This document shows positions 7,612 to 29,408 of a stretch of DNA of 64,000 nucleotides, in pieces. Made by a program: the position numbers and the translations under genes. The DNA comes from Candidatus Hydrogenedentota bacterium (GTDB taxonomy: Bacteria > UBA8481 > J006), in NCBI GenBank assembly GCA_003697085.1, contig RFFU01000074.1, positions 17,562 to 81,561 of the forward strand, given 5' to 3'. The notes under the pieces are model-generated. The model was not told the DNA's origin, did not search any database, and saw nothing but the letters and a program-made list of their open reading frames with translations. Numbering within the stretch: the stretch's first letter is position 1; every line of letters begins with the position of its first letter.

Positions 7612-7758
7612 ATGGCGGAAAAGGAAGCTGAGAAGGTTGAGTCGGATTCCGGGAAGGAGCCGGAGAGGAAAGAGGAGGAGGCGCTTTCCGAGGAGGAGAT
7701 GCGGAAGGTGACGGGGGGACGACTCTTTGGAAATTCGATCGCCGGGCGGGTGCTATGA
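7612..7758 (+). CDS. Short precursor peptide with a double-glycine leader (48 aa: 36-aa leader + 12-aa core RLFGNSIAGRVL)
   Basis: MAEKEAEKVESDSGKEPERKEEEALSEEEMRKVTGG|RLFGNSIAGRVL. The LSxxEMxxVxGG motif matches the consensus recognised by C39 peptidase-ABC exporters. Strong RBS 7 nt upstream. Paralogous leader in the next gene. In the ORF track this is the in-frame tail of the spurious 7009..7758 ORF. Confidence 0.75.
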   Translation: MAEKEAEKVESDSGKEPERKEEEALSEEEMRKVTGGRLFGNSIAGRVL

Positions 7759-7790
7759 CTCGAGTGCTCTTCTTAAATGAGGGCGGAAAT

Positions 7791-7828
7791 GATTCCCCGC
7801 AGTCGGGGAGAAAGGAGAGGTGAAAAGG
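7791..7828 (+). promoter_or_regulatory. Second copy of the conserved 5' leader (hairpin CCCCG-cagt-CGGGG plus GGAGAGG RBS)
   Basis: gattccccgcagtcggggagaaaGGAGAGGtgaaaagg is 34/38 identical to 7574..7611. Confidence 0.5.
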
Positions 7829-8515
7829 ATGGCGGAAAAGGAAGACGGGAAGGCAAAAGCCGACAAAGAGAAGGAACCGGAAAGAAAACCGGAGGAACCC
7901 CTTTCGGAGGAGGAGATGAAGGATGTGGCGGGAGGGTTTATTCCCACTCCGGCCACTTTCGGGAATCCCCTTTCGTCCCGGATGGCGTCGAGATTGCGTC
8001 GGCGCGGCGCGGTCGGTCCGGTCGATCCCGAGGAGGCGGTCTCACGCGGTCCGGTCGATCCCGAACAAAGCCGGCGTCCCGACGATCCGAAACACCCGTG
8101 GCACCTTTGCTTCGGCCCGGAGACGCTGGTTCCAACGCGGAAGGGCTATCAGCCTATTTCTGGGATCGCAGTCGGTGACGAGATCGTCAGTGTCACCTTC
8201 GACGGAACCTTGTTCGTCGATCGGGTCGAAAAGCTGGACGTTCACCACGGGGAGATTTCCGTGATCGAACTTTCGTTGGACGACGACGTGATTCTCGTCA
8301 CTCCTGACCATAAGGTCTGGTCGGGCGAGAAATGGATCCGAGCCGCCGACTCGATCTATGTTTCCCGGACGAAGGTGGGAAGAATCGTTCCGGCGGTCTA
8401 TAACCTTCGAACCACCACGGGAACATACCTGGTCGGATACAGCGGACTGCTCGTTTCAGGTGGGCGGGTGGAAGACCTGCATTCCGAGGATCCGGTGGCG
8501 GAGGTTGCTCGGTAG
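7829..8515 (+). CDS. Precursor protein of 228 aa: double-glycine leader (36 aa), 57-aa core, and a C-terminal Hedgehog/intein-type Hint autoprocessing domain
   Basis: MAEKEDGKAKADKEKEPERKPEEPLSEEEMKDVAGG|FIPTPATFGNPLSSRMASRLRRRGAVGPVDPEEAVSRGPVDPEQSRRPDDPKHPWHL|CFGPETLVPTRKGYQPISGIAVGDEIVSV...ILVTPDHKVWS...VPAVYNLRTTTGTYLVGYSGLLVSGG. Hint block A begins with Cys (codon 8108..8110; compare CFTPES in Hedgehog). Block B is T-x-x-H (VTPDHKV). Block F/G-like VYNL..TGTYLV is present, but there is no terminal His-Asn. The track ORF starts at an in-frame GTG at 7820; the ATG at 7829 with an RBS matches gene 1. Confidence 0.75.
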   Translation: MAEKEDGKAKADKEKEPERKPEEPLSEEEMKDVAGGFIPTPATFGNPLSSRMASRLRRRGAVGPVDPEEAVSRGPVDPEQSRRPDDPKHPWHLCFGPETLVPTRKGYQPISGIAVGDEIVSVTFDGTLFVDRVEKLDVHHGEISVIELSLDDDVILVTPDHKVWSGEKWIRAADSIYVSRTKVGRIVPAVYNLRTTTGTYLVGYSGLLVSGGRVEDLHSEDPVAEVAR

Positions 8516-8590: not shown

Positions 8591-8739
8591 GCCGTGCTCG
8601 CTCGATGTCTCCCAAACGTTTCACGCTTCGATTCGCTCTTCCCCCTACCGTTCTGTATCTTCCGAGCGTTCCATCGTTTCTTAGTCCGCGCTCCCCCCTT
8701 TCCGGCGCGGGACGGCGCGTAAATGGCGGGTGGCGGGTT

Positions 8740-10986
8740 TTACCCTTGTTGGAACGGTTCCCCCGGCGCTGCCTCCGCCATACGCTCGAGAAAATAGACC
8801 GCCGGGCCGTCGTAGGGAAGTCGTCGTGCGACCTCGGTGATCGATTCCTTGGCACGGGCGACGTCCTTTTCGCGGTAGGCTCGAACGCCCTTCTCCCACG
8901 TTTCCATAACCTCCAGGTAACTCTTCGGGAGCCGTGCGGTTTCATCCACAAGTTCGTAAACATCCAACGCGGCTTTCTGTCCCCGAAGCCGAAAGACTCC
9001 GACGGTACGGAAATAGAACCGGTTTGGAGCGCACTTTTCGACCTCTTGCTTCGTCTCTCCGGACGTCAGGATTGTCGTGCCGAGATCGCGGTTGAGACTT
9101 TCGAGCCGCGAGGCGATATTGACCGTCGTGCCGATGACCGTGTAATCGAAGATCGTTTCGGAACCGAGGTTTCCGGCCACGACTTCGCCTGTATGGATTC
9201 CGATTCGAATGCCGAGATTTGGCCACACTCCGCTGGCCCACGTCTGGGCCAGCTCCGCCACCGCCCGCCGCTTTTCCAGGGCGCAGGAACAGGCGAGCAC
9301 GGCGTGCTTCTCCTGGTGAAGAGGGACGTTCCATTCGGCCATCACCGCGTCGCCGATCATCTTGTCGATCGTTCCGTCGAACGCGACGATCTTCTCGGTC
9401 ATCCTCGTGAAGTAGGTGTTGAGGAAGCGGACCAGATCTTCCGACGGCAACTCCATCGCCCACCGACTGAAGTGTTTGATATCCGAAAAGAGGACGGTCG
9501 CCGTCGTCTTTCGACCGACGAGTGTCAGCGCCGAGGGGTCCTTCAGGATCTCCCGCATTACGGAGGGGGCGACGTATTTCTGAAAGGCCAATCGCAGCCT
9601 CCGTTTCTCCTCGAACTGGTGATAGGTCCAGTCCGACAGGAGGAAGATGCTGGAGGCGAGCAAGGGAGCCGCGACCGGAAGAAGAAAGCCTTTGTTCATC
9701 AGTACTGCGGCGGCTCCCAGAAGAAGAACGCCACTTCCCGCCAAGGATGTCACTCCCCAAACCAGATTGCGGCGCATCCCCCACCATGCAAGAAACGCCG
9801 TGAGGACCGTAAGCAGCCAACCGAGCCACCTTGGAGGGAGCCGGAGGGAGGTGGGATCGAGCAGGGTTGCCGTGGCGTTTGCCAAAATCCGAGTGTAAGG
9901 AAGGGAAACGCCCAAGGGAGTCCGAATCCTCTTCCGAGCGGGACCGATCAAAACGATTCGCCCGGAAAAACGGTCCCGCGACAGCCGTTTCGGCGCGTTA
10001 TCGAAAGCCGCGTCGTGCCACAGGTCGGCGAAGGAAAGCGGTTCCCCTGGAAAGACCTCGAAACGTCCCGCCCGATCCTTTCGATTCCGTTTCGGGTTTC
10101 GGTAATAGTTGACCAGGATGGTTTCGTCCGCATTGGCGGCGCTTTGCTCCCCGAGATTCCGGAGGAGCGAACATCGTGCGCGCCCGTTTCCAGTAAACCC
10201 ACCGGAGTTGCCGGAGAGAGAAGCCGTCCAACCGGCGATCGCCAACGGCAGAGACGGGAAGAAAACGCCCTTGACCTGGAGCCAGAGTGGGAATCCCATC
10301 GTGGGGCGTTCCGGGCGCCGAAAAGCAAGGAAGCCGATCTCCGTTTTCGGAGTCGATACGCGGGACGAGGGAAAAGAGACGCTCGGAACGGAAAGAATTT
10401 TCTTCGGGGGGGTGGAAAAGGAACAGGCGGCCGCGTCGAGTACGGCGGCTTGTTGCCGGTTTGAATTCGCGAAGCCCGAGTCGATTCGGAGAGGCAGGAT
10501 GTTGGGGATTCGATCGAGCGCACTTCGAAAGGAGGCATCCTGTTCTCGGGAGAAGAGGACGGGAAATTCCGCCACGAAGGTTTCGAGTTGGCTCTCTTGT
10601 TCGGCGAGGTGTTTTCGGAGCGCGTCACGGAAGATCGTTGAATTGAGTTTGACGGGAACTTCGTCCAGTACGAAGGGAATGTGGAACGCGACCCCCTGGG
10701 CCCCGTTCTCCGCGAGATATTCGACCACCTTCGCAAAAACACTTCTCGGCCAAGGAGGTTCTCCCATTTCGGGCTTCAGTCTTCGCAAACTTTCGTCATC
10801 GATTTCCACGACCGTGAGGGGCAACTCCGTGGTCGTTTCCCGGTAATGACGGCGTATCCGAAACGCGATGGTTTCTTCCTCGAGACCCTGAACGAGATAG
10901 AACGGGTCCAAGAGGACGAAGAGGACGATCACCGCGAGAAGAAGGGTGCTCGAGTGAGAGAAGTTCTTGACCGACCTAAGAATCAT
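8740..10986 (-). CDS. CHASE2 sensor domain-containing class III adenylate/guanylate cyclase
   Basis: N-terminal signal/TM, a large periplasmic region and several TM helices typical of CHASE2. C-terminal cyclase catalytic domain VLFSDIKHFSRWAMEL...FDGTIDKMIGDAVMAEWNVP...IRIGIHTGEVVAGNLGSE...YTVIGTTVNIASRLESL. Confidence 0.85.
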   Translation of the reverse strand: MILRSVKNFSHSSTLLLAVIVLFVLLDPFYLVQGLEEETIAFRIRRHYRETTTELPLTVVEIDDESLRRLKPEMGEPPWPRSVFAKVVEYLAENGAQGVAFHIPFVLDEVPVKLNSTIFRDALRKHLAEQESQLETFVAEFPVLFSREQDASFRSALDRIPNILPLRIDSGFANSNRQQAAVLDAAACSFSTPPKKILSVPSVSFPSSRVSTPKTEIGFLAFRRPERPTMGFPLWLQVKGVFFPSLPLAIAGWTASLSGNSGGFTGNGRARCSLLRNLGEQSAANADETILVNYYRNPKRNRKDRAGRFEVFPGEPLSFADLWHDAAFDNAPKRLSRDRFSGRIVLIGPARKRIRTPLGVSLPYTRILANATATLLDPTSLRLPPRWLGWLLTVLTAFLAWWGMRRNLVWGVTSLAGSGVLLLGAAAVLMNKGFLLPVAAPLLASSIFLLSDWTYHQFEEKRRLRLAFQKYVAPSVMREILKDPSALTLVGRKTTATVLFSDIKHFSRWAMELPSEDLVRFLNTYFTRMTEKIVAFDGTIDKMIGDAVMAEWNVPLHQEKHAVLACSCALEKRRAVAELAQTWASGVWPNLGIRIGIHTGEVVAGNLGSETIFDYTVIGTTVNIASRLESLNRDLGTTILTSGETKQEVEKCAPNRFYFRTVGVFRLRGQKAALDVYELVDETARLPKSYLEVMETWEKGVRAYREKDVARAKESITEVARRLPYDGPAVYFLERMAEAAPGEPFQQG

Positions 10987-11129
10987 CGTTCTTCCTTCCC
11001 GCCCGACTCGCGTTTTCGATCGCGTTCAAGGACGATTTCGATTCGGTATCCTAAACCACGAAGAAGGCTTTATTGGAGTGGAATTTCGAAGCGGAGGCGC
11101 TTCGCGACGATCCGCGAATCGAGCGTCCG

Positions 11130-11590
11130 TGCGTGGAGCGCGGATTCACCAGTCTGCGGATGGCCGAACCGCTCTGCACAGGTTGGAGAACCTGCGGCCC
11201 ATCCTTGCAGGCAAGATGCGTGCGCTCCGAGGGAGCGTAGACTCTCCAGTCTGCGAATTGCTAATTCGCCCTCCGTGGAAGGGGCTGGTTAGCGCTGGTG
11301 GGGGATTCCTCGTCGGCGTCGCTTCGCGCCGCCTCTCTCGGAATGACACAAGGGGGGAGCGAAGCGACACACTGTTGTCATCCCGAGTTCGCCTCAAGGC
11401 GAACGACGGATCTCCCCAACGCGGTATTCCGCATTGCGAACCGATCGGTGCCTGTGGGGGATTCCTCGGCGCTAATGCGCCTCGGACTGACAGGCCGATC
11501 CGGCTCCATGTTCGCCGTGTTACGGAGCGCGGAGACTCCTGTCTGCGAATTCAGCGATCCGTCGCTCGCCGCCGACCGCACCTGTGCATT
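11130..11590. repeat. Composite intergenic repeat element (module A in reverse orientation plus two module B copies)
   Basis: 11180-11245 caggttggagaacctgcggcccatccttgcaggcaagatgcgtgcgctcc is the reverse complement of module A. 11296-11345 and 11455-11480 carry gtgggggattcctcg...ctcggaatgaca (module B). Confidence 0.7.
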
Positions 11591-11718
11591 CCCATTTTTT
11601 CTTTCATTCGCTCTTGAAAATCAATACCAATTGGATTAAACTATAATGCTCTCCTGTTGGAGATTTCGGAGAAGATCGAATTTGAGGAACCGTGGGAGGC
11701 GGGAAGGAGTTCGCGTGT

Positions 11719-12765
11719 ATGAGGTGGTTTTCGCGACGTCTTTTCTCTCTAGGAATGGCGGTTTCGGCTTTGTTTTTGGTGGCGGGAGCCGGGAATGCTT
11801 CCCTCTATTCCTCCAACGGTTTCTATAACGTTACCTTCAACAATCCAACAAACACGAAATATATCGACAAGAGAGCCTCGGATTTCATCGACGCGGCTCA
11901 GTCGTACTGTTACGTCGCGATCTACGCGCTGAATCGCCAGAGGATCGTGGACAGCCTGATCGAGCGTCACCAGGCCGGGGTGGACGTTCGCGTGGTGACC
12001 GAAGCCGATAACCGTAATCACCCCTCCTACAAGGCCGCTTATGATCAACTCGAGGCCGCCGGAATCGTCGTCAAAACCGATAACCGGTCCGCTCTGATGC
12101 ACCACAAGTTCATCGTGGTCGATGATAACGAGGTTCTGACGGGATCCTACAATTTTACCGATGAAGGAACGCAACAGAACAAGAACAATCTCTTGGTCAT
12201 CCACTCCTCGGGCGTCGCTTCGCGTTTCAAGGGAGAGTTCCTCGAGATGTGGGCGGGGAGGTTCGGCAACGCGAAGGCGGATTTCTCGGGGAGAAACACC
12301 GTCAGCGGCGCCACCGTGTACACGAAGTTCGGCCCGAAGGCGAATCTCCGCGCTTCCCTGCTCTACCATCTCAACACCGCCAACGTTTCCGTCTATTTCA
12401 ACATCTTCACCTTCACCGACCAGTCGATCGCGGACAAGTTGGTCGAACTCCACCAGCGCGGTGTTACCGTAAAAGGCACGATGGACGCCTACCAGGCCAC
12501 CGACCAGTATTCGCAGTATCAGTACCTCGTGGCGAACGGCCTGCCGATCAAGCGCGATGCATATGCGGGTTTGTTGCACGACAAATTCATCGCCATCGAC
12601 GCGGGAACCGCCAGCACACCGAAACTGATCACCGGTTCGGCGAACTGGACGGCCGCGGCCGACGAGGAGAACGACGAGGATATGTTGGTCATCTACGACT
12701 ACGACACCGTCGGAAGAAGTTACAAGGGAAACGCCGTTTACGTCTACAACTACAAGGCCTACTGA
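11719..12765 (+). CDS. Secreted phospholipase D-like superfamily protein with two HKD motifs (PLD/Nuc-like phosphodiesterase)
   Basis: Signal peptide MRWFSRRLFSLGMAVSALFLVAGAGNA. First HKD: LMHHKFIVVDDNEVLTGSYNFT. Second HKD: LLHDKFIAIDAGTASTPKLITGSANWT. The track ORF starts at 11692; the ATG at 11719 gives a clean signal peptide. Confidence 0.8.
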   Translation: MRWFSRRLFSLGMAVSALFLVAGAGNASLYSSNGFYNVTFNNPTNTKYIDKRASDFIDAAQSYCYVAIYALNRQRIVDSLIERHQAGVDVRVVTEADNRNHPSYKAAYDQLEAAGIVVKTDNRSALMHHKFIVVDDNEVLTGSYNFTDEGTQQNKNNLLVIHSSGVASRFKGEFLEMWAGRFGNAKADFSGRNTVSGATVYTKFGPKANLRASLLYHLNTANVSVYFNIFTFTDQSIADKLVELHQRGVTVKGTMDAYQATDQYSQYQYLVANGLPIKRDAYAGLLHDKFIAIDAGTASTPKLITGSANWTAAADEENDEDMLVIYDYDTVGRSYKGNAVYVYNYKAY

Positions 12766-13007: not shown

Positions 13008-13286
13008 GTGGTGCGGGAGATCGTCGGCGAGGCGGCCAAGGTCGAGGGAATCGCCTGGGTCGTCCTTTTCGGTTCCCGCGGCCGGGGGGATCATAATCGC
13101 CGTTCGGATTATGATATCGCAATCTCGGCACCGTTGTTGTCCAGGCAAGATTGGACGTTCTTCGCCTCCCACCTTCGGGATACGGTCCGAACTCTCTGTT
13201 GTCTCGATTTGGTCCGTTGGGAAGATCCCCTCGATCCCGAATTGAGAAGAGAGATCGAACGAGGAATCCGGGTTTACGCGGCGTGA
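13008..13286 (+). CDS. Nucleotidyltransferase-domain antitoxin (MntA-like, type VII TA)
   Basis: VVLFGSRGRGDHNRRSDYDIAI is the minimal NTase fold GS-x9-13-DxD motif; 92 aa. Confidence 0.75.
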   Translation: MVREIVGEAAKVEGIAWVVLFGSRGRGDHNRRSDYDIAISAPLLSRQDWTFFASHLRDTVRTLCCLDLVRWEDPLDPELRREIERGIRVYAA

Positions 13287-13687
13287 ATCGCCTTTCGTCC
13301 TCGATCGAGAACCTGAAATTGGCCTTCGCCGCGCTCGAACGGTTGCTGAAAACCCCCGTCACAGAACCACGCGATCTTTCCGGTATCGTGAAGGATTTCG
13401 AGATCGTCTATGAATTGAGTTGGAAGACCTTGAAAAAATTCCTCGAAAGCGAGGGCCATTCCCCTCGTTCAGCCAGGGAAGCCTTCCTTTTGGCCTTTCA
13501 ACTCGGATACCTGGAGGATGATCGGGTCTGGGTCGAGATGATCGAAGACCGAAACCTCACGGGACACACTTATAATCAACCTTTTGCAGCCTCTTTGGTG
13601 AAGCGGATACGGGAGAAGTATCTCCCCGCTTTGGCGGGACTAAGGAATACGATCGTCTCAGAGAGGGAAAACCAGACCAATCGTTGA
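13283..13687 (+). CDS. HepT-like toxin (nucleotidyltransferase substrate-binding protein, HI0074 family)
   Basis: Overlaps the MntA stop (GTGA). Contains the Rx4HxY motif (RNLTGHTY) near the C-terminus. The in-frame GTG at 13283 is taken as the start. Confidence 0.7.
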   Translation: MNRLSSSIENLKLAFAALERLLKTPVTEPRDLSGIVKDFEIVYELSWKTLKKFLESEGHSPRSAREAFLLAFQLGYLEDDRVWVEMIEDRNLTGHTYNQPFAASLVKRIREKYLPALAGLRNTIVSERENQTNR

Positions 13688-13859
13688 ATCGCGTTACGAC
13701 TTCCGTCACCCGGCTTCGCAATCTTTCCATAATGACCAGCGATACCGAGTGATGACGAGAGGGAGAACGAGCGTTTGGATAGGCGGGAGGAATGGGATGC
13801 CCGGGCCGCCGCGTTTTCTTGGACGAATCAGCATCTCCCAAAAAGGAATCGACGAAGTC

Positions 13860-14138
13860 TCAACCCCCGTTCCCGAACCGCTGTGCCACAACCAGAAGGA
13901 GTTCTCGAAACCCACCGGGCCGCCGGACAAGCGCAGCCGGATCGGGCAACGACTTCGGCACTTTCGAACCGTCGGTGAAGCCTTGGAGGTAGAGATCCAG
14001 GAAGGAATCGACGAGCGACAATAACTCCTCGAATTGTCCGGGCCCGAGCCGCGAGGCCAGATCGTTCATCAACGTTTCGTCTTCGAGAATCGCCTCGTGA
14101 ACCCGCCGGCGAAAATGAGCCGTGTTTCTTACTGCCAT
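13860..14138 (-). CDS. Hypothetical small protein (92 aa)
   Basis: Intact ORF with GC3-rich codon usage typical of the window; no recognisable motif. Weak call. Confidence 0.3.
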   Translation of the reverse strand: MAVRNTAHFRRRVHEAILEDETLMNDLASRLGPGQFEELLSLVDSFLDLYLQGFTDGSKVPKSLPDPAALVRRPGGFRELLLVVAQRFGNGG

Positions 14139-14309
14139 TCGATGACTCTATTCTCTCTGTTCCAACGATGCAATTCGATATGGCCGCGCGGGAACGAAGA
14201 AACGGCGAGGGTTTCGGGGCGCGCGGAGATTTGGAGCCGACCGGCCGGTGAAGCGCATAACATCCATTGTGATTTCGTGAAGAGCGGGGCGAACCGACGC
14301 CACCCGGCG

Positions 14310-14660
14310 CCCCCCTGTCCTTCCGAGGAGGCCGAAGGCCAACGAGGAATCCCCCGCGGGAGCGAAACCGGCCCCCTGGAAGTATGGCGAAAAACGGGCA
14401 CCGTTTGTCGGATCGTGTCCGTCCACTCCGGCGCGAAACCCCGCATGGGATCGGGACGGGCGAAAGGTGACCCTCTGCGAACCCGTTTTTGCAGGCAAGA
14501 TGCCTGCCTGTCGGCAGGCAGGCCCGCGCTCCCAGGACACGCTTCCCATTCCCTTTTCGTTTCCCTTCCCCATTCCCTTTTTTTTGCCCTTGCCTTTGCC
14601 CTTGCCCTTCCCGCGTGATACTCCGTGGAGGGGATTCCTCAATCGCCTTACGGCGATTTT
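14310..14660. repeat. Composite intergenic repeat element (modules B, A and C in reverse orientation)
   Basis: 14320-14345 cgaggaatccccc (module B). 14488-14545 gcaggcaagatgcctgcctgtcggcaggcaggcccgcgctcccagga (module A). 14545-14620 ttcccattcccttttcgtttcccttccccattcccttttttttgcccttgcctttgcccttgcccttccc (module C, pyrimidine strand). Confidence 0.7.
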
Positions 14661-14875
14661 CGGAATGATAAAAGACGCTGTCCTTCCGGGGATGCCGCAG
14701 TCCCGGTGAGGCATCCTCGATGAGGAGGGGCTGCCGACGGCTCGCTTCTCGTCCCCACCTGTCTTTGGGTCTGCGCCCCCGGCAGGAGACAGCCGGATGC
14801 CCCTCTGGATGGCTCACTATGTCCCCGTGTACTTCTGAAACTGTCAAAATGGAAGAATGACACCTTTTTCTTTGT

Positions 14876-15496
14876 ATGATAGGTTGGGAAACGATGCGAA
14901 AGGTCCTTTTCATTCTCGGGCTCCTGACGGATCAGGATGTTGAACGCCTCGGGAGGCTGGGGTCCATCGAGAAGATTTCAGCGGGAGCGACGTTGATAGA
15001 AGCGGGGCGTCATCCCGACAAGGTCTATTTCATACTCAGCGGTATTTTTCGTGTTACGCGGAACGCTGCCGTCGGTACGGAGGGGGCGAGCGAGGGGGCG
15101 GTGGGTTCGAAAAACGTCGTGGCGGAACTGCGCGCGGGTGAAGTATTGGGGGAGATGTCGTTCGTTCAAGATGCGCCGCCGACGGAGACGGTCACGGCGG
15201 TCGGGGAGGGTGAGGTCTTGGCGATACCCCGCGAGGACCTCCGCGCCGTTCTCGAATCGGATCCCGCTTTCGCCTCGCGTTTTTATCAAGCCATCGCCGC
15301 TTTTCTTGCGGATCGCCTGCGCGGAACGATGAACCGGCTCTATGGGAGGCCGACGGAAACGGCGGGAGCGGGAGACGATGACTCGGAGAGAGGAACGATT
15401 CTCGAAGAGGACGAGTTGGATCCCCGCGTTCTTGATCGTGTTTCGCGTGCCGGAGAACGATTCGACCGATTGCTCAAGAAGTTCCGCGGGAGATAA
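14876..15496 (+). CDS. Cyclic nucleotide-binding domain protein (CAP-effector-domain family, no HTH)
   Basis: ...KVYFILSGIFRVT...RAGEVLGEMSFVQDAPPTETVTAVGEGEVLAIPREDL... is the canonical cNMP-binding beta-roll signature (G-E-x-S/A ... R-T-A-T-V-like). First gene of the exporter operon. Confidence 0.8.
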   Translation: MIGWETMRKVLFILGLLTDQDVERLGRLGSIEKISAGATLIEAGRHPDKVYFILSGIFRVTRNAAVGTEGASEGAVGSKNVVAELRAGEVLGEMSFVQDAPPTETVTAVGEGEVLAIPREDLRAVLESDPAFASRFYQAIAAFLADRLRGTMNRLYGRPTETAGAGDDDSERGTILEEDELDPRVLDRVSRAGERFDRLLKKFRGR

Positions 15497-15501
15497 GACG
15501 T

Positions 15502-16746
15502 ATGGTCGAATATCGCAAGGCGGCGCTCGATAAACTTGCTTCCCCCGAGCAACTCGACCGTCTCATTACGGTCACCGGTTCCCGTAGTTGGCTCGCTCTG
15601 GGCTCCATCTGTTTTCTTCTTCTCCTGATCCTCGTTTGGAGTGTCGTCGGGCGGATCCCCGTCACCGTCTCGGGACGCGGAATCCTGATCCGGGAGGGGG
15701 GGTTGGTTGAGATCGAGAGTCTGGGGACGGGATTAATTTCGGAGCTCCTGGTGGAGGAAGGGGATCACGTGGAGCCGGGCCAGCTGGTCGCTCGGATCCG
15801 ACAACCGACGCTCGTAACGGAGATCGAACAAGCGCGGGATCGGGTGCAGGAGCTCGAGGTGCAGCGGGAACGGACTTCGAAGCTAGAGTCGGAACGTGTC
15901 CGGCTGGGGGCCGCCGCGCTCGACCAACAGGAGGCGGAATTGCGAGGAACGATCCGCACCTCTCGGGAACGTGTTGCGTGGTTGGAGAAGCGGGTGGAGG
16001 CCTATCGCGATGCTGTTCGCGAGGGGCTGATCACGGAGGAGGAGTTGCGGCGGGTGATGAAGGAACGGGCGAGCGAGCGGGAGGTGATCGCGCGGGCCGA
16101 ATCCCGTCTCAAGAAGATCGCGTCGGATCGCCAAGCGCTGGAGACCGAGCGGGAGCGAAATCTTCTTGCGATCGACAAACAGCTCAGCGACGCCCGGCGG
16201 ACGCTGGCGGCTTTGGAGTCGCGGCTTCGCGAGGAAGGGCAGGTGTTTTCTCCGCACCGGGGCCGGGTCGTGGAGATCAAGGTCGAGCAAGGAGCGATTG
16301 TGACGAGGAACGCGGCCCTGATGAGTCTCGAGGCGGAAACGGGCCCGCTGGTCGCCGAGGTTTTCATTCCGGTCGAGGCGAAGAAGATACGCCGTGGGAT
16401 GGCGGCGCGGATCGCTCCCGCCACGGTGAAAAAGGAAGAGTACGGGATGATTGTCGGGCGCGTGGACGGTGTCTCGGCGCTTCCCGCCACGCGGGAAGGG
16501 ATGATGCATCTTTTGAAGAACGAATTGTTGGTCAAAGAACTGGCTTCGCGCGGCGCCCCCTTCCGTGTCACGTTGTCGCTCGAGGAGGATTCGGCGAGTT
16601 TCAGCGGTTTCCGATGGACCTCCTCGCGCGGGCCGAGAGTGCGGATCGAAAGCGGGATGCTCTGCGAGGGACGGATCGTCGTGGAGAAGAAGGCGCCGAT
16701 CCGCTTTCTTATTCCGGCGCTCAAGTCCTTCTTCGGCATAACGTAA
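15502..16746 (+). CDS. HlyD-family membrane fusion protein (bacteriocin-type / NHLM-type secretion adaptor)
   Basis: N-terminal cytoplasmic stretch, single TM (WLALGSICFLLLLILVWSVV), then long coiled-coil and beta-barrel hairpin regions typical of type I secretion MFPs. 6 nt downstream of the cNMP-binding gene. Confidence 0.8.
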   Translation: MVEYRKAALDKLASPEQLDRLITVTGSRSWLALGSICFLLLLILVWSVVGRIPVTVSGRGILIREGGLVEIESLGTGLISELLVEEGDHVEPGQLVARIRQPTLVTEIEQARDRVQELEVQRERTSKLESERVRLGAAALDQQEAELRGTIRTSRERVAWLEKRVEAYRDAVREGLITEEELRRVMKERASEREVIARAESRLKKIASDRQALETERERNLLAIDKQLSDARRTLAALESRLREEGQVFSPHRGRVVEIKVEQGAIVTRNAALMSLEAETGPLVAEVFIPVEAKKIRRGMAARIAPATVKKEEYGMIVGRVDGVSALPATREGMMHLLKNELLVKELASRGAPFRVTLSLEEDSASFSGFRWTSSRGPRVRIESGMLCEGRIVVEKKAPIRFLIPALKSFFGIT

Positions 16747-16757
16747 CTCGGAGAACG

Positions 16758-18962
16758 ATGGCTGTCGCCGCCGCGGAAGGTATCAAACCGTCTTCGGGAA
16801 AACCGCGGTTCCGTCGTGTCCGAACGCCGACGGTTCTTCAGATGGAGGCGGTGGAGTGCGGCGCGGCATCGCTGGCGATTATTCTCGAGTATTACGGCCG
16901 CGTGGTTCCGCTCGAGGAACTTCGCGTCGCATGCGGGGTGACGCGGGACGGAAGCAACGCCTTTCATTTGATCTCGGCTGCGCGGGAGTACGGATTCGAA
17001 GCCCACGGATACCGAAAGGACATTCCCCACCTCTACAACATCAAACCGCCCTTCATCATCTTCTGGAACTTCAACCATTTTTTGGTCGTCGAGGGATTGG
17101 CCAAGGATCGCGTTTTTCTCAACGATCCCGCGATGGGACCGCGCGTCGTTCCGATGGACGAATTCAACGAGTCCTACACCGGCGTTGTTCTGACCTTTGA
17201 ACCGACGCCGCGCTTCAGGAGAGGGGGACGCCGTCCGAGCCTGTCAGCGGCGGTCTGGAACCGCGTACGCCACTCTTCCGAAGGCATCGCCTACGCCGCT
17301 GTGGCGGCCGTCGCGCTCGTCGGCCCCGGATTGGCGGTTCCCGCCTTTTCGCGGATCTTCATCGATGACATTCTCATCGGCGGAATGCACGACTGGATCC
17401 GTCCCGTCCTGCTCGGTTTGGCGATCACTGGGTTTTTTCGCGTCTTTCTTACCTTTCTCCAGTCCCATTCTCTTCTTCGGCTCGAAACGAAACTTTCGAT
17501 CACCCAGACCGGTCGCTTTTTGCACCATATCCTTCATCTTCCCGTCTCGTTCTACCAGCAGCGTTACGGCGGAGAAATCAGCAACCGAGTCGGTTTCAAT
17601 TCGGACATCGCCCGCATCCTTTCGAACCGTCTCGCCGGAACGATCCTGGACCTTTTCATGACTGTCTTTTATGGAACGGTTCTCTTTCTGCTTTCTCCGG
17701 TGTTGATGCTGATTGCGGTTCTGGGAGTGGCCGCGAATGCCGTTACGGCTCGGACGATGCATCGGACCCTGACCGACGAGAACCTCCGTCTTCAGCAAGA
17801 GGCCGGAGCGACTTTGTCCGCGGCGATGTCCGGCGTGGCCTCGATCGAGACGCTGAAGGCGACGGGGAGCGAATCGGACTTCTTCGCGAACTGGGCGGGG
17901 CATCACGCGAAATACACGGTGACGATGCAAAACCTGAGTCTCAAAAGTGCTCTCTATTCCTCCCTCTCGACCCTCGTGAATTCCCTTTCGGACGTGGCGA
18001 TTCTGGGAGCCGGGGCCCTTCTGATTATGAACGGCCGCATCACGATGGGAACCTTTGTCGCCTTTCACGCGCTCTCCGCCTCCTTTGCGGGTCCGGTGAC
18101 GCGGATCATCAATCTCGCGACGGTGATTCAAGCCTTGCGCGCGCGCCTTGTCCGTCTCGACGACGTGCTCAATCACAAACACGCGCCGGACCTGCGGGTC
18201 GCGGAATCGACGCCGGTCGTTGCAGAAGAGGAAGAGAAACTTTCGGGACATCTCGAGATCCGCAATCTCACCTTCGGCTATTCGCGTTTCGATCCGCCGT
18301 TGATCGAGAATTTTTCGATGACGATCGCTCCGGGCGGGCGCGTGGCTTTGGTGGGGGCATCGGGATGCGGGAAATCGACATTGGCGAAACTGATCACCGG
18401 ATTGTACGAGCCGTGGGAGGGTGAGATTTATTTCGACGGACGTCCGCGAAAGGCGATCCCGCGTTCCGTGCTTACGAGCTCCGTTGCGATGGTGGATCAA
18501 GAGATTTCACTCTTTTCCGGAACCATTCGCGAGAACATTACACTTTGGGACGAGACGATTCCGGATATCGAAGTGGTGCGGGCGGCCAAGGATGCGGCGA
18601 TTCACTCCGAGATCACAGCGCGCGCGGGGGGATATGACGCGGAGTTGGAGGAGGGAGGAGCGAATCTTTCCGGCGGTCAACGCCAGAGGCTGGAGATCGC
18701 CCGGGCGCTCGTGACGAATCCTCGCCTGCTGATTCTGGACGAGGCGACCAGCGCTCTCGATCCCGTGACCGAGAAGGAGATCGATCGCAATCTGCGGGTG
18801 CGCGGTTGTACCTGCGTGATCGTCGCCCATCGGCTTTCGACGATTCGCGACGCGGACGAGATCATCGTCCTTGAACGCGGCCGGGTGGTTCAAAGGGGGA
18901 CGCACGAGGAATTGATCGCCGATCCGGACGCGCCGTATGCGCGATTGGTAAAGGCTCAATGA
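16758..18962 (+). CDS. Peptidase C39 domain-containing ABC transporter (double-glycine leader cleaving, bacteriocin exporter, peptidase/permease/ATPase)
   Basis: N-terminal C39 domain with catalytic Cys in MEAVECGAASLAIIL and His in FNHFLVVEG. Six-TM permease. C-terminal NBD with Walker A GASGCGKST, signature LSGGQRQRLEIARAL and Walker B LLILDEATSALD. The ATG at 16758 is used; the track ORF's upstream extension overlaps hlyD and is spurious. Confidence 0.88.
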   Translation: MAVAAAEGIKPSSGKPRFRRVRTPTVLQMEAVECGAASLAIILEYYGRVVPLEELRVACGVTRDGSNAFHLISAAREYGFEAHGYRKDIPHLYNIKPPFIIFWNFNHFLVVEGLAKDRVFLNDPAMGPRVVPMDEFNESYTGVVLTFEPTPRFRRGGRRPSLSAAVWNRVRHSSEGIAYAAVAAVALVGPGLAVPAFSRIFIDDILIGGMHDWIRPVLLGLAITGFFRVFLTFLQSHSLLRLETKLSITQTGRFLHHILHLPVSFYQQRYGGEISNRVGFNSDIARILSNRLAGTILDLFMTVFYGTVLFLLSPVLMLIAVLGVAANAVTARTMHRTLTDENLRLQQEAGATLSAAMSGVASIETLKATGSESDFFANWAGHHAKYTVTMQNLSLKSALYSSLSTLVNSLSDVAILGAGALLIMNGRITMGTFVAFHALSASFAGPVTRIINLATVIQALRARLVRLDDVLNHKHAPDLRVAESTPVVAEEEEKLSGHLEIRNLTFGYSRFDPPLIENFSMTIAPGGRVALVGASGCGKSTLAKLITGLYEPWEGEIYFDGRPRKAIPRSVLTSSVAMVDQEISLFSGTIRENITLWDETIPDIEVVRAAKDAAIHSEITARAGGYDAELEEGGANLSGGQRQRLEIARALVTNPRLLILDEATSALDPVTEKEIDRNLRVRGCTCVIVAHRLSTIRDADEIIVLERGRVVQRGTHEELIADPDAPYARLVKAQ

Positions 18963-21877
18963 CGGCGCGCGATCTGCTCGCGTCTCTCGCTCGGCTCGGT
19001 CCAGAACGGGATGTGAGCGGGAAGGAGACGTTCTACGTTCAGGGAGCCGAACGCGCGTGGGTCCTGACGAAAGGCGTTGTCGATGTCTTCGCGGTTATGC
19101 TCGAGGACGAGCGGCCCATCGGCCCGCGACATTACCTCTTCAGCGCCTCGCCGGGAATCATTCTCTTCGGTGTCGATCTTCTCCGCTACCACAAGCGTTG
19201 TGCTCTGTTGGCGGTCGGAGTTCCGGGAACGCGTGTTGTTTCCTTCGGCATCGCGGATTTGGTCGAGACGGCCCGGCGAAGTGGAACGCTGGAGGCGCTG
19301 GCGAGGCAGATTGAGGATTTTTCTGGAAAGGTAGGGGCGCTCTTCACCGCTCGTGAGCGGCCACCGTTCGATGAATTTCTCGCCGTGGGAGAGGAACGAG
19401 AGGTTCCGGCGGGTCGTGTTCTCGGAACGGAGCGCGGAATTACTTGGGTCCACGTGATCGGGGGGAAGGTCCGGCTCTGTGGTTTCGAGGATCTCGTCGT
19501 GGAGGCCGACGGCACCGCCGTTCCTCTCGCCCCGGGGCTTTGGCTCGAAACACTTATTGCGTCACATCTCGAGGTGATCGACAGCCGCGCGTTGCTTGAA
19601 CGCGATCCGCGCCTGAAGGCGTTGGGAAATTTGCAAGCCGTATATGTCCGATGGATCGAGGACCGCATCGCGGCGAAGCGGGCCGAGGAGCGGGAACGAA
19701 TTTCCCGGAGGCGTGAGCGGGATCAGGCGATTCTTGCCAAGGCTCTGGAGGATCTTAGCAGTGTTCTTGTCGGAAAAGGGCGCGCCGTGCCGGAGCACGA
19801 TCGTCCTCTGTTGGCCGCCTTGAATCGGATCGGCGCCGCGCTCGATTTGGATTTTCACCTTCCTTCGGAGTGGGAGTTGAGCCGGTACGGCGCCGCGCCT
19901 CTCGAGGCCATCTGCCGCCGTTCGCGGATCCGCCACCGGCGGGTGGCCCTTTACGGAGATTGGTATCGCCGGGACAACGGGCCGTTATTGGTCTTTCGAG
20001 ACAAGGAGCACGGGGCAACGCCCGTAGCCGCGGTTCCTCTTTCGGAGTCGCAGTACGAATACTTTGACCCTGTCACGGGAGCGACGGGGATTCTGACGCG
20101 GGATGTTGCCGCCACGCTCGATCCCTTCGGCGTGATGTTTTATCCTCCGCTTCCCGCAAAACCGCTTCACGTCTTTCAACTACTCAGACACGGAAGCCGG
20201 TTCGTTTCGAAGGACCTCCGGCGGGTGTTGGGGTTGAGTTTGGCGGCCGGCGCGCTTTCGCTGGCGTTGCCGTGGGCGACAGGGCTCCTTTTCAGCGACG
20301 TGATTCCTTCTTCCGAGCGACCGCTTCTTCTGCAGGTTGTTTTAGCGCTGTTGATCGCTTCTTCCGTCCAGACGCTCTTCCATTTCGTTCGCACGATTGC
20401 GCTGACGCGGATGCGGGCACGGTGGGGCGAGACGGTTCAGGCGGCGCTGTGGGACCGGATCGCTTCCTTGCCTCCGCGATTCTTCCGCCGCTTCACCGTC
20501 GGGGATCTCGTGGATCGCGCCGAGGTCGTGGATCACCTGCGCGAGGAACTCAGCGGCGCCGGGCTGACGGCCATCATCGGCGGGTTGATGTCGCTGATGC
20601 AATTTATTTTGATGTTCTACTATAGCCGGGTTCTCGCTCTGGGAGCCTTGGGAATCACGGCGCTCTTTGCTCTCGTGACCGGAGGCCTTGCCGTGGGAAT
20701 GCTGCGGTACGAGAGGGAGATGCAGAGGATCGCGGGGCGCCTCTCGGGTTTTCTTTACCAGGTGATCACCGGCATTGCCAAGATTCGGGTGGCGGGGGCC
20801 GAGGAACGGGCGTTTGCGGAATGGGCGCGACGGTTCCGCCGCGAACGCCTTCTCCGCTTCCGGGCCGGCTCCTACCAGAACATCATTCTCACCGTCAATG
20901 CCGGGCTGCCGATCCTTTCGACGATTCTCGTCTTTCTCCTTGTGCGTTATGCCGCGTTGCTCCCGGAGGGAGCCTGGATCAGTGTCGGGGATTTCATTGC
21001 CTTCAACGCCGCGATGACCGTCTTCCTCAACTCCGCGCTTTCGCTTACCGACACGGCGGTCAACCTTCTCAACCTCGTCCCGATGTTCGAACGCGTCGAG
21101 CCGATTCTTGTGACGGAGCCGGAAGCGCGGGAGGATCGGCCGGATCCGGGGCGCATCACCGGTTCTGTCGAGATGAGTCACGTTTCGTTTCGGTATCATC
21201 CCGACGGGCCGCTTGTTCTCGACGATGTTTCGTGGTCGGCGGCGCCCGGGGAGTTCGTTGCGTTGGTCGGGCCGTCCGGGGGAGGCAAATCGACGATCAT
21301 CCGGTTGTTGCTGGGATTCGAAATCCCGGAGACGGGAAACATCTATTTCGATGGGAGGGATGTATCGGCGGTGGACGTCACGGCGTTGCGGCGTCAGATC
21401 GGAGTCGTTCTCCAGAACAGCCGGCTCCGCCCCGGCTCGATCTTCGACAATATCGTCGGTTCCTCGAATCTTACCCTCGATGATGCCTGGCGTGTGGCCG
21501 AGCAGGCGGGTTTGAAGGAGGATATCGAGGCGATGCCGATGGGAATGCACACGAACATTTCCGAGGGAGGGACGACGTTTTCGGGGGGGCAGCGACAACG
21601 AATTCTGATCGCCCGCGCGCTGATTCATCAACCGCGAATCCTGATCTTCGACGAAGCGACGAGTGCCCTGGACAACACGACGCAGAAAGTCGTCTCCGAC
21701 AGTCTCGACCGTCTCAATGCAACGCGGATCGTGATCGCCCATCGCCTTTCGACGATCCGAAATGCCGACAGAATCTATGTAATCGAGAAGGGAAGGATTG
21801 TACAACGGGGAAACTACGAGGAATTGATGACGGAGGGAGGTCTATTCACCGACCTCGCGCGCCGTCAACTCGCTTAG
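18959..21877 (+). CDS. ABC transporter ATP-binding/permease with N-terminal cyclic nucleotide-binding-like domain (second component of the NHLM-type exporter)
   Basis: 972 aa. The N-terminal ~150 aa are cNMP-binding-like (ETFYVQGAERAWVLTKGVVDVF). Then a degenerate peptidase-like region, a 6-TM permease, and an NBD (GPSGGGKST; FSGGQRQRILIARAL; ILIFDEATSALD). ATGA start/stop overlap with the preceding gene. Confidence 0.85.
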   Translation: MTARDLLASLARLGPERDVSGKETFYVQGAERAWVLTKGVVDVFAVMLEDERPIGPRHYLFSASPGIILFGVDLLRYHKRCALLAVGVPGTRVVSFGIADLVETARRSGTLEALARQIEDFSGKVGALFTARERPPFDEFLAVGEEREVPAGRVLGTERGITWVHVIGGKVRLCGFEDLVVEADGTAVPLAPGLWLETLIASHLEVIDSRALLERDPRLKALGNLQAVYVRWIEDRIAAKRAEERERISRRRERDQAILAKALEDLSSVLVGKGRAVPEHDRPLLAALNRIGAALDLDFHLPSEWELSRYGAAPLEAICRRSRIRHRRVALYGDWYRRDNGPLLVFRDKEHGATPVAAVPLSESQYEYFDPVTGATGILTRDVAATLDPFGVMFYPPLPAKPLHVFQLLRHGSRFVSKDLRRVLGLSLAAGALSLALPWATGLLFSDVIPSSERPLLLQVVLALLIASSVQTLFHFVRTIALTRMRARWGETVQAALWDRIASLPPRFFRRFTVGDLVDRAEVVDHLREELSGAGLTAIIGGLMSLMQFILMFYYSRVLALGALGITALFALVTGGLAVGMLRYEREMQRIAGRLSGFLYQVITGIAKIRVAGAEERAFAEWARRFRRERLLRFRAGSYQNIILTVNAGLPILSTILVFLLVRYAALLPEGAWISVGDFIAFNAAMTVFLNSALSLTDTAVNLLNLVPMFERVEPILVTEPEAREDRPDPGRITGSVEMSHVSFRYHPDGPLVLDDVSWSAAPGEFVALVGPSGGGKSTIIRLLLGFEIPETGNIYFDGRDVSAVDVTALRRQIGVVLQNSRLRPGSIFDNIVGSSNLTLDDAWRVAEQAGLKEDIEAMPMGMHTNISEGGTTFSGGQRQRILIARALIHQPRILIFDEATSALDNTTQKVVSDSLDRLNATRIVIAHRLSTIRNADRIYVIEKGRIVQRGNYEELMTEGGLFTDLARRQLA

Positions 21878-21927
21878 CGAGGCAGGGCTGGACAAATCCA
21901 TGACGACACGACAGCGAGGCACCAAAG

Positions 21928-23367
21928 GTGAATCTCCGCCCCTTCGTTTCCTTTTTCTCTCCCGCTGATACAATTTCCCCGATGGAACGGTTTTCGGATA
22001 AGAGCTTCTCGGATCGTGATGTCTCCGAACAACGGCGGCCGCGGATTCTCGTGGTTCGCTCCTGCGCGGCGACGCTCCTACCCGCAATCGATTCTCTCCG
22101 TAATGAATTTCCAGATGCGGCTGTCGATCTTCTGGTGAGCCGCGGATTTCGAGACGCGGCGGGGAACGAAGCCGCGAACGGCCGCGTAATCGAGGTTGAT
22201 CGGGACGGACCGTTTCGTCGAGCCAGTCTGCGTGCCGCCACGCGACGAACGTTTCGCAAGACGAATTATATCGCCGTCGTGACCCTCTATCCTCCGGAAA
22301 CCACCGCACCGGCCGCGAATCTCGAGTCCCTCGTCCGATCGCTTCGCGTCCACCGCCACCTTCGGCTTCGCCGAAAGGGAAACAGCGTCGAACCTCTTCC
22401 CGAGACACCGGCGATTCGAGCAAGAACGAGGCAAGGGCGAGGCTCCGGCCGATGGCGTTCGAGTGCATTCGTTGAACTCGCCTCCCCGGCGCGTTCCCCG
22501 CATTCCTTCTCGCGTCGGCTTCGATCCTTTTACGCCACGCTCTTCAATAAACCCGCCTTCCTCCCATGGAACCGTTTTCTCTTCCGGCTCGGACTGGCCG
22601 GTTTGGGCGTCGACCATTGCGGAGACGAGAAGAACAGCGGGGAAGCCTGGTTCGTCCGCAACATCCTGCGCCGTATCGGAAAAAAGGCCACGGTCGTCGA
22701 TGTGGGAGCCGGTATCGGTCGTTACGCACGCTTGGTCCGACGGAATGCTTCCGATGCACGTATCCTCTGCCTCGAACCCCACCCCGCCACCTTTCGCGTT
22801 CTTTCGGCCGCCGCCGCCGAAATAGGAGCGGAGGCTTTCGCCGTCGGCGCAGCGGAGACGGATCGTTCAGCGCCGCTTTTCGATTTTGTTCCGACCGGCT
22901 CGTCCCGAGCATCGCTCTTTCCGGAGACGCTCCTCTCCGGCTCCCGTCTTGATCAGTCACGTCCCGCGGAGGGGGATTCCGGTGAAGAATCCCTCTGGCA
23001 CTCCGACGTTCCCCTCGTCAGCCTCGACTCTTGGCTCCCCGCGCAGGAGGTCTCCCAGATTCATCTTCTTAAAATAGATACCGAAGGTTCTGAACGTCTC
23101 GTCCTCGAAGGGGCACGCCGTTTTCTTTCGGAGGGAAGGGTGGATGTCATTCAGTTCGAATTCAACGAGATGAATCTTGCCTCTCGGACGTTCTTGGCGG
23201 ACATTCGAACGCTTCTCCCCGGATTTCAACTCTATCGGATTCTCTCCACCGGCCTCCTTCCGCTCGATTCCCTCGCTCCCTTCGAGCGAGAGATATTCGC
23301 GTATCAGAATATCGCCGCGATCCGATCCGCTCTGTCGTCGCCGGATGGCATCTTCAACTCACTGTGA
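21928..23367 (+). CDS. FkbM-family SAM methyltransferase with an N-terminal Rossmann-like (GT9-like?) extension
   Basis: The C-terminal half matches FkbM: VVDVGAGIGRYARLV...ILCLEPHPATF...HLLKIDTEGSERLVLEGA...VIQFEFNEMN. The N-terminus RILVVRSCAATLLPAIDSLR resembles the start of heptosyltransferase-like proteins but is short. Confidence 0.65.
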   Translation: MNLRPFVSFFSPADTISPMERFSDKSFSDRDVSEQRRPRILVVRSCAATLLPAIDSLRNEFPDAAVDLLVSRGFRDAAGNEAANGRVIEVDRDGPFRRASLRAATRRTFRKTNYIAVVTLYPPETTAPAANLESLVRSLRVHRHLRLRRKGNSVEPLPETPAIRARTRQGRGSGRWRSSAFVELASPARSPHSFSRRLRSFYATLFNKPAFLPWNRFLFRLGLAGLGVDHCGDEKNSGEAWFVRNILRRIGKKATVVDVGAGIGRYARLVRRNASDARILCLEPHPATFRVLSAAAAEIGAEAFAVGAAETDRSAPLFDFVPTGSSRASLFPETLLSGSRLDQSRPAEGDSGEESLWHSDVPLVSLDSWLPAQEVSQIHLLKIDTEGSERLVLEGARRFLSEGRVDVIQFEFNEMNLASRTFLADIRTLLPGFQLYRILSTGLLPLDSLAPFEREIFAYQNIAAIRSALSSPDGIFNSL

Positions 23368-28597: not shown

Positions 28598-28672
28598 GGC
28601 GGCGTAGCTCAGAGGTAGAGCAGAGGTCTCATAAGCCTCGTGTCGGCGGTTCGATTCCGCCCGCCGCTACCA
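28598..28672 (+). tRNA. tRNA-Met (anticodon CAT; elongator type, or tRNA-Ile2 if lysidinylated), CCA encoded
   Basis: 75-nt cloverleaf GGCGGCG-TA-GCTC-AGAGGTA-GAGC-A-GAGGT-CTCATAA-GCCTC-GTGTC-GGCGG-TTCGATT-CCGCC-CGCCGCT-A-CCA. The anticodon stem lacks the three G-C pairs of initiators. Confidence 0.85.
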
Positions 28673-29406: not shown

Positions 29407-29408
29407 CG

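Follow-up and report, generated by a model that had tools for sequence, protein, structure and literature searches.

The exporter operon and its family

A 64,000-nucleotide (nt) stretch of a Candidatus Hydrogenedentota metagenome-assembled genome (MAG; contig RFFU01000074.1), referred to here over its whole length as the window, carries a four-gene operon for a predicted peptide exporter of the NHLP/NHLM type. The four open reading frames (ORFs) lie head to tail on the forward strand and encode the following proteins, of 206, 414, 734 and 972 amino acids (aa) respectively.

14876-15496 (+): soluble single-domain cyclic-nucleotide-binding (CNB) protein; PF00027, 65.5 bits against a cut-off of 27.5
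15502-16746 (+): HlyD-type membrane fusion protein (periplasmic adaptor); TIGR03794 over its full length, 348.4 bits against a cut-off of 156.2
16758-18962 (+): peptidase-containing ABC transporter (PCAT); TIGR03796, 1027.4 bits against a cut-off of 853.3
18959-21877 (+): second ABC exporter subunit; TIGR03797 over aa 281-971 only, 876.3 bits against a cut-off of 709.4

In gene order, the junctions are a gap of 5 nt, a gap of 11 nt and an ATGA overlap. An earlier reading of the DNA made from its letters alone (the sequence-only reading) had described this tight packing, which was borne out for the 11-nt gap and the overlap, the first gap being 5 nt and not the 6 nt claimed. The three transport genes are adjacent, on the same strand and in one operon, and they contribute the one C39 domain and the one exporter that make up the total for the window. 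The same reading had likened the genes to the NHLM bacteriocin exporters and proposed a comparison with three hidden Markov models (HMMs), TIGR03794, TIGR03796 and TIGR03797; when this was run, all three scored above the curated NCBIfam equivalog cut-offs, and because of this the NHLP/NHLM family assignment holds. Generic HlyB, HlyD and bacteriocin-ABC models all scored far under their own cut-offs on the transport proteins. On these profile matches, the locus is classed as a standard NHLP/NHLM-type peptide export module, which is widespread and already catalogued.

A 361-aa ORF on the reverse strand that overlaps the operon start (13828-14913) was rejected as a gene, being Arg/Gly/Pro-rich, having no family match and crossing a non-coding stretch. 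Scanning positions 13600-22100 for promoters and terminators gave the same counts as in shuffled sequence. Just upstream of the operon, at 14545-14610, there is a C/T-rich run with a 24-nt period.

The peptidase-containing subunit is predicted to be active

The description of the second gene product as a HlyD adaptor was upheld by the full-length match to TIGR03794, and the 414-aa protein was also matched by Pfam HlyD_3 and Biotin_lipoyl_2. The PCAT chain carries PF03412 Peptidase_C39, PF00664 ABC_membrane and PF00005 ABC_tran domains, and is homologous over its full length to PCAT1 (4ry2, E 4e-103, residues 24-721) and to ComA. The Walker A, signature, Walker B-Glu and H-loop motifs are intact in the ATPase domains of both ABC proteins of the operon.

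16824-17210 (+): C39 double-glycine peptidase domain, aa 23-151 of the PCAT; PF03412, 124 bits

Among solved structures, this C39 domain has its closest homologue in LahT150 (6mpz), to which it aligns with an E-value of 8e-45 and approximately 54% identity by our own count. Residues Q28, C34, H107 and D123 of the PCAT align with Q21, C27, H101 and D117 of LahT150, for which the roles of the residues have been reported (PMC6363468). An intact Cys/His/Asp triad had been proposed for this protein from its translation, and C34, H107 and D123 do align with the catalytic residues of LahT150; the C39 domain of the 734-aa PCAT is predicted to be an active peptidase.

The second ABC subunit carries tandem CNB-like barrels and a degenerate C39-like domain

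The 972-aa subunit was assigned to TIGR03797 from residue 281 onwards, and its first 280 residues received no Pfam or NCBIfam assignment. By exhaustive HMMER searching, aa 1-420 were found to be common to 969 cluster representatives (E<1e-10), most of which are approximately 960-990 aa long and were matched from their own N-termini; the N-terminal extension of the subunit is a family-wide trait. Structure prediction gave the following elements within it, so that the domain order reads tandem CNB-like barrels, long helix, degenerate C39-like domain, transmembrane domain and ATPase.

19004-19579 (+): two tandem CNB-like beta-barrels, aa 16-97 and 139-207 (AlphaFold and Foldseek)
19616-19768 (+): long helix, aa 220-270, connecting the sensor-like module with the C39-like domain (by DSSP from the AlphaFold model; predicted local distance difference test score, pLDDT, above 90)
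19799-20158 (+): degenerate C39-like domain, aa 281-400 (AlphaFold and Foldseek)

An AlphaFold model of aa 1-280, built on 60 relatives, had a mean pLDDT of 93.3 and contained two barrels and a helix. When this model was compared to the PDB with Foldseek, the top matches were to PKA-R and PKG, at their tandem CNB domains (probability 1.0, E 2e-8 to 1e-5, 11-16% identity). The sequence-only reading had assigned one cNMP-binding-like domain to this N-terminus; the predicted fold agrees, with two barrels rather than one. In sequence, there is no Pfam cNMP signal and no conserved binding cassette. PF00027 matched 0 of 50 family members at E-values up to 0.05, and neither a cNMP nor a C39 match was obtained in the N-terminal 420 aa. 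In the column profiles of the barrels, structural glycines (Gly71) are kept, the position of the cassette Glu is hydrophobic and that of the Arg is variable or gapped, and, as we read the DSSP string, no helix occupies the site of the phosphate-binding cassette helix in the second barrel.

The domain that follows the long helix was modelled with residues 270-426 (pLDDT 88.7), and its top Foldseek matches were the C39-like domain of HlyB (7sgr_A, E 8e-4, and 3zua), followed by PCAT1, ComA and LahT150. No significant BLASTP match (E 22) joined the active C39 domain of the PCAT to aa 271-430 of the second subunit, and kinship between the two domains is visible, in these models, at the fold level only. 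At the catalytic positions, the window protein has Leu288 (19820-19822) and retains Asp370, and no conserved His was found in aa 275-405 of the family (82 relatives); from these residues, the C39-like domain of the 972-aa subunit is predicted to be catalytically dead. Despite the lack of a conserved His, Cys stands at position 288, that of the catalytic cysteine, in 59 of the 82 relatives.

Haft et al. (PMC2887384) described the third transport protein as being without a peptidase domain. Our models indicate that this so-called peptidase-less subunit keeps a degenerate C39-like fold, here and family-wide. The ATGA overlap implies translational coupling of the 972-aa subunit to the PCAT gene, and the architecture of the subunit suggests an asymmetric PCAT with one subunit that cuts and one that docks and senses.

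A widespread family of soluble CNB proteins accompanies the exporter

The first gene of the operon had been described as encoding a standalone cNMP-binding protein, and its PF00027 match lies above the gathering score. Its likely true start is Met7, at 14894, according to both the family alignment and the NCBI gene model, and this start is suggested by the conserved N-terminus of the family, MRKVLFILG. The protein also matched TIGR03896 with an E-value of 4e-38, at 131.7 bits and so below the cut-off of 161.05, over profile positions 137-317 of 317 only. It belongs to a family of single-domain proteins of approximately 180 aa (73 clusters), and at least 494 loci were found to encode relatives when one genome per GTDB species was scanned. 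These relatives are hosted by Proteobacteria, Acidobacteriota, Cyanobacteria, Gemmatimonadota, Planctomycetota, Chloroflexota, Spirochaetota, Bacteroidota and others, and the window protein is this widespread single-domain form found in many phyla.

Gene neighbourhoods were surveyed for the best 80 of the at least 494 loci, together with one metagenomic locus (81 in all). A C39-ABC gene was present within 10 kb of the CNB relative in 64 of the 81, and the 17 loci where it was missing were mostly short contigs. In 63 of the 64 positive loci the CNB gene was on the same strand as the exporter, being upstream, as in the window, in 39 and downstream in 24. The module of four genes is conserved, occurs widely and is already covered by the curated models.

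The cassette of the CNB protein reads GEMSFVQDAPPTETV, in which Gly92 and Glu93 are kept. HMMER alignments to solved CNB domains, whose corresponding cassettes read GEIS...TRTATV, GELS...PRTATG and GELA...PRAATV, place Pro102 at the position of the phosphate-contacting Arg. This Pro102 is nearly invariant over 33 family members. Approximately half of the members have an Arg at -2 from it, where the window protein has Ala, and the nearly invariant Ala104 of the family is Glu104 in the window protein. The family also conserves a C-terminal motif, ELDxxVLDxxxxAGxRFDRLLK, which by its sequence resembles a docking helix.

Do cyclic nucleotides gate the exporter?

From the presence of one soluble and one fused cNMP-binding domain, the sequence-only reading had taken secretion to be gated by cAMP or cGMP, and the window does hold a gene that could provide such a signal.

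8740-10986 (-): membrane sensor cyclase, CHASE2 plus class III adenylate/guanylate cyclase; Pfam CHASE2 E 9e-24, Guanylate_cyc E 2e-23

The cyclase gene lies 3.9 kb upstream of the operon and is convergent with the two precursor genes described below; a 619-aa ORF on the other strand (8605-10464, +) was rejected in its favour. Homologues of the cyclase were present in 10 of approximately 80 related loci, mostly flanking the module directly (L018, L021, L023, L032, L040, L047 and L056), an adjacency that we would expect to be more frequent than chance. The window cyclase was also faintly matched by the NCBIfam model 'TOMM system kinase/cyclase fusion protein', at 31.5 bits against a cut-off of 705.75.

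It is possible that the CHASE2 cyclase is the source of a nucleotide signal. Were cAMP or cGMP to gate secretion, they would do so through the soluble CNB protein and the fused CNB-like domain, with the neighbouring cyclase supplying the signal, and several observations speak for this: gene 1 has a true PF00027 domain with the Gly-Glu of the cassette kept, the cyclase gene is beside the cargo genes, its homologues recur at related loci, and an NCBIfam model for a kinase/cyclase fusion exists to which the window cyclase has a faint resemblance. The residues that would have to hold the ligand argue the other way, as the soluble protein has Pro in place of the phosphate-contacting Arg, has no Arg at -2 and has Glu for Ala at 104, while the fused barrels have neither a Pfam cNMP match nor a conserved cassette, and the second of them has no cassette helix. 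Further evidence comes from HetC, the only experimentally studied relative, the N-terminal cNMP domain of which was not stabilised by cAMP or 2-oxoglutarate (PMC10986499). Canonical cAMP/cGMP gating is unlikely on these residues, the claim of gated secretion is weakly supported, and we regard the explanation as a whole, cyclase included, as quite improbable.

The same HetC domain was found to bind GTP and ppGpp (Kd 59 uM) in vitro and to be essential in vivo (PMC10986499). By analogy, the CNB-type domains of the window exporter might sense another ligand, be it ppGpp or GTP as in HetC or some other metabolite, or, without binding any ligand, they might serve for interaction, either docking the substrate or making export depend on physiological state. 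In favour of this explanation are HetC, as a long-type PCAT with an N-terminal cNMP domain that it needs in vivo, the lack of canonical cassette residues from both the soluble and the fused CNB domains, and the docking-helix-like C-terminus of the soluble protein. On the other side, the HetC parallel is drawn from domain layout and not from a direct homology comparison of the N-termini, and the recurrent cyclase neighbours favour some link to cyclic nucleotides. We give this explanation a little less than an even chance. A nucleotide-responsive exporter is plausible, and the finding of a CNB partner family without the phosphate-binding Arg makes it a directly testable question which ligand controls peptide exporters of this very common type.

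Two tandem genes encode candidate cargo with short Gly-Gly leaders

Two precursor genes lie upstream of the exporter.

7612-7758 (+): candidate cargo 1, 48 aa; a 36-aa Glu/Lys-rich leader ending LSEEEMRKVTGG and a 12-aa core, RLFGNSIAGRVL
7829-8515 (+): candidate cargo 2, 228 aa; a 36-aa leader ending LSEEEMKDVAGG (7829-7936), followed by 192 residues

The full leader of cargo 1 is MAEKEAEKVESDSGKEPERKEEEALSEEEMRKVTGG, after which the core RLFGNSIAGRVL begins, and that of cargo 2 is MAEKEDGKAKADKEKEPERKPEEPLSEEEMKDVAGG. Both leaders have Val at -4, Met at -7, Leu at -12 and the Gly-Gly, which is the canonical C39 recognition motif. The genes are tandem duplicates with 77% identity over 157 nt (7562-7718 against 7779-7935), including the ribosome-binding region and the leader, and, since an FGNx(I/L)xxR motif is found in both cores, the shorter of the two appears to be a truncated copy. 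In NCBIfam, cargo 1 gave weak matches to Gly-Gly leader families only and cargo 2 gave no match, and its models for NHLP and Nif11 leaders matched neither precursor. Further HMMs for these two leader types, built ad hoc from neighbours at related loci after the seeds had been validated with NCBIfam, detected no NHLP or Nif11 leader in the six frames of the window, and their sole matches were the two cargo genes, through the Gly-Gly motif alone. A further strict match to the leader motif, in an Arg/Gly-rich reverse-strand frame at 52254-52598, was dismissed as spurious. These searches agree with two statements of the sequence-only reading, that the two precursors at 7.6-8.5 kb are the only convincing GG-leader candidates in the window and that it has no NHLP or Nif11 precursor.

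The further suggestion, that with these precursors the exporter family has a different class of cargo, does not hold. Their motif is canonical, and among the 64 loci with an exporter a Gly-Gly candidate was detectable within 10 kb in 29 (none in 35), where by locus short leaders that are neither NHLP nor Nif11 (50 aa or less, often Lys/Glu-rich) were found at 13, Nif11 leaders at 8 and NHLP leaders at 7. Short charged Gly-Gly leaders are the most frequent cargo-type neighbour of the module in the survey, and co-occurrence with NHLP or Nif11 is often absent in related loci too. Similarly, Wang et al. 2011 placed 150 of 290 cyanobacterial Gly-Gly precursors in a class 'Other', distinct from NHLP, Nif11, HetP and DUF37, which includes clusters with an extra peptidase-less ABC gene (PMC3140520). 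The local precursors are of the ordinary short-leader cargo type for this exporter module.

In a Planctomycetaceae MAG (locus L054, 17547-20506), three consecutive Gly-Gly-leader proteins are encoded directly downstream of the same four-gene module. Their cores are of 166, 179 and 230 aa and Ser/Thr/Asp-rich, with one Nif11 leader and two short leaders, and large cargo is therefore not unique to the window.

The main substrates might instead be NHLP or Nif11 precursors elsewhere in the genome, to which the two local short-leader genes would be incidental or additional. The exporter was defined by its co-distribution with NHLP and Nif11 precursors, often encoded far from the transporter, according to Haft et al. 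2010 (PMC2887384); the 35 loci without a Gly-Gly candidate would fit such an arrangement, and our search covered 64 kb of a 199.7-kb contig of the MAG. What lowers its probability is that these 64 kb hold no NHLP or Nif11 leader, that the local leaders match the recognition motif exactly, and that the window has no other C39 peptidase to serve them. We consider distant main substrates to be possible, if somewhat unlikely. The proximity of the two local genes (6.4 kb) and the fit of their leaders suggest their pairing with this exporter.

Cargo 2 joins a Gly-Gly leader to a predicted Hint domain

The longer precursor can be divided into three parts.

7829-7936 (+): leader
7937-8107 (+): 57-aa peptide
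8108-8512 (+): predicted C-terminal Hint (Hedgehog/intein-type) domain, from Cys94

Pfam Hint_2 matched cargo 2 weakly (18.7 bits, below the cut-off of 28.4), with Cys94 and a TPDH sequence (the TxxH block) both present and the His of this block, His161, invariant on alignment, and PDB matches to the Hedgehog autoprocessing domain and to DnaE inteins were marginal (E 0.04-0.9) and start exactly at Cys94. The sole homologue among 5.8 billion clusters was P0002 (locus L084, 1076-1771), which is 36% identical over the Hint domain (E 1e-26) and itself passes Hint_2 with 35.8 bits. P0002 has the same layout of Gly-Gly leader (...EEAQAITGG), peptide of approximately 60 aa, junction and Hint domain, and the junction DPKHP(W/L)(H/N)LC is conserved between the two. 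It is encoded on a 1.9-kb contig with a protein-kinase-like fragment as its upstream neighbour. No further Gly-Gly-Hint relatives were found in JGI metagenome contigs with protein patterns or with a degenerate DNA pattern for YNLRTxTGxYLVG, and the fusion of a Gly-Gly leader to a predicted Hint domain is a rare architecture.

Hint domains act by an N-to-S acyl shift, and at Leu93-Cys94 this would free the upstream peptide. Cargo 2 could then be a new kind of exported self-processing precursor, its leader directing it to the PCAT and a Hint thioester at Leu93-Cys94 releasing the 57-aa peptide, whose C-terminus might be modified or cyclised; we think this rather unlikely and offer it as a speculation. 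If it is true, autoproteolysis would replace a separate tailoring enzyme, and a functional leader-Hint cargo would link double-glycine export with Hedgehog-style autoprocessing.

Neighbouring genes and repeats

Between the cyclase gene and the exporter, and beyond the precursor genes, the window holds the following further features.

11692-12765 (+): PLD-like protein (PLDc_2, two HKD motifs) whose N-terminus has a hydrophobic segment; encoded between the cyclase and exporter genes
13008-13286 (+): nucleotidyltransferase (Polbeta/NTP_transf_2)
13151-13687 (+): nucleotidyltransferase substrate-binding protein
11198-11223 with 14482-14507, and 11281-11317 with 14338-14374: shared repeat pairs
11135, 11232 and 11524: three copies of a 41-nt repeat unit

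The pair of genes at 13008-13687, which is placed between the cargo genes and the exporter, looks like a toxin-antitoxin system of MNT/HEPN-type layout. Two stretches, 10987-11690 and 13690-14875, are without a convincing gene and have short direct and inverted repeats in common. Approximately 6 kb from the precursor genes there is a gene for an Rce1-like (CAAX/CPBP) intramembrane protease (709-1584, -), a family often tied to bacteriocin self-immunity. Two tRNA-Met (CAT) genes are found in opposite orientation at 28598-28672 (+) and 29408-29482 (-), approximately 0.7 kb apart.

A model for export by the four-gene module

Taken overall, we favour the explanation that the locus is a standard NHLP/NHLM export module with short-leader local cargo, working as set out here, and consider this likely. 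The C39 domain of the PCAT would bind the last 13 or so residues of the Gly-Gly leader and cut after the Gly-Gly, and the PCAT would feed the core peptide into the transmembrane cavity of the ABC exporter; recognition, cleavage and transfer are the steps for which homology gives support. The second subunit probably pairs with the PCAT as a heterodimer with one catalytic and one docking C39-type domain, having lost the peptidase chemistry and kept a C39-like docking fold, as in HlyB. The HlyD adaptor would link this pump to an outer-membrane channel encoded outside the operon. The soluble CNB protein and the fused CNB-like barrels would form a conserved regulatory, accessory or docking layer, which probably does not hold its ligand in the way that canonical domains hold cAMP or cGMP. 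Locally, the products of the two tandem Gly-Gly-leader genes 6.4 kb upstream are the most likely substrates.

Several observations weigh against this explanation. The heterodimer is an assembly that we infer from strict co-occurrence, translational coupling and the analogy to HlyB. No outer-membrane factor of the TolC/OEP family was found among the 10 largest other window ORFs scanned, although in the related metagenomic locus L002 an OEP gene lies directly upstream of the HlyD gene. The cargo genes are separated from the exporter by the opposite-strand cyclase, the PLD-like gene, the toxin-antitoxin pair and approximately 1.2 kb of non-coding DNA. The 192-aa cargo, which would include a foldable Hint domain, is large for a PCAT, for which the L054 cores of 166 to 230 aa offer a precedent, and there may be NHLP or Nif11 precursors elsewhere in the genome, outside the window.

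Family membership, domain folds, catalytic residues, leader motif and the conservation of the four-gene module are established here, whereas formation of the heterodimer, the pairing with the cargo, and the regulatory role and ligand of the CNB layer are inferred. The exporter adds one phylum, Hydrogenedentota, to a family catalogued since 2010, and brings no conceptual change. The modest new points are the second subunit with its tandem pseudo-CNB barrels and dead C39-like domain, a partner family whose cassette lacks the phosphate-binding Arg, and a cargo with the rare leader-Hint layout.

Comparison with known systems

The locus resembles the NHLP/NHLM system, as set out by Haft et al. 2010 (PMC2887384), in having the three transport proteins above the cut-offs, their genes adjacent on one strand, and a predicted active C39 domain. 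The local leaders also fit the motif logo published there, with Leu at 2, Ser at 3, acidic residues at 4 and 6, Val at 10 and the Gly-Gly. It differs from that system in that the window lacks NHLP and Nif11 precursors and that the leaders encoded nearby, rich in Glu and Lys, are short at 36 aa, and Hydrogenedentota is not among the genomes named in the part of that paper considered. The CNB protein, encoded 5 nt upstream of the HlyD gene, has a placement like that of TIGR03896, the 'bacteriocin-type transport-associated protein' (cyc_nuc_ocin), which is likewise a CNB-domain protein encoded beside the same transport operon. It differs from the 317-position model in having a single CNB domain and a length of 200 to 206 aa, and in scoring below the cut-off.

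The C39 domain of the PCAT subunit has the same catalytic residues as LahT150, PCAT1 and ComA (6mpz, 4ry2, 3k8u), and the hydrophobic residues on which LahT150 depends, at -4, -7 and -12, are present in the local leaders. LahT150 requires just the last 13 residues of a leader and cleaves short lanthipeptide leaders too (PMC6363468). These three differ from the window exporter in being Gram-positive, single-gene homodimers without an adaptor or second ABC subunit.

HetC of Nostoc PCC 7120, a long-type PCAT, shares with the 972-aa subunit an N-terminal extension of approximately 280 aa with a CNB-type domain, followed by C39-type, transmembrane and ATPase domains (PMC10986499, PMC3140520), and in both proteins canonical cyclic nucleotides are doubtful as ligands. 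In HetC the C39 domain is active (C347, H420) and the cNMP domain is recognised by Pfam (PMC10986499), whereas the 972-aa subunit has a predicted dead C39-like domain and no Pfam cNMP match, and would act beside a separate active PCAT and a HlyD adaptor.

The best structural match to aa 281-400 of the second subunit is the C39-like domain of HlyB (3zua, 7sgr), from the type I secretion system for haemolysin; it has a C39 fold without the catalytic residues. In both, this fold precedes the transmembrane domain of an ABC exporter partnered by a HlyD adaptor. HlyB is a homodimer that exports on a C-terminal signal with no cleavage, whereas here the inactive domain would belong to the partner of an active, leader-cleaving PCAT.

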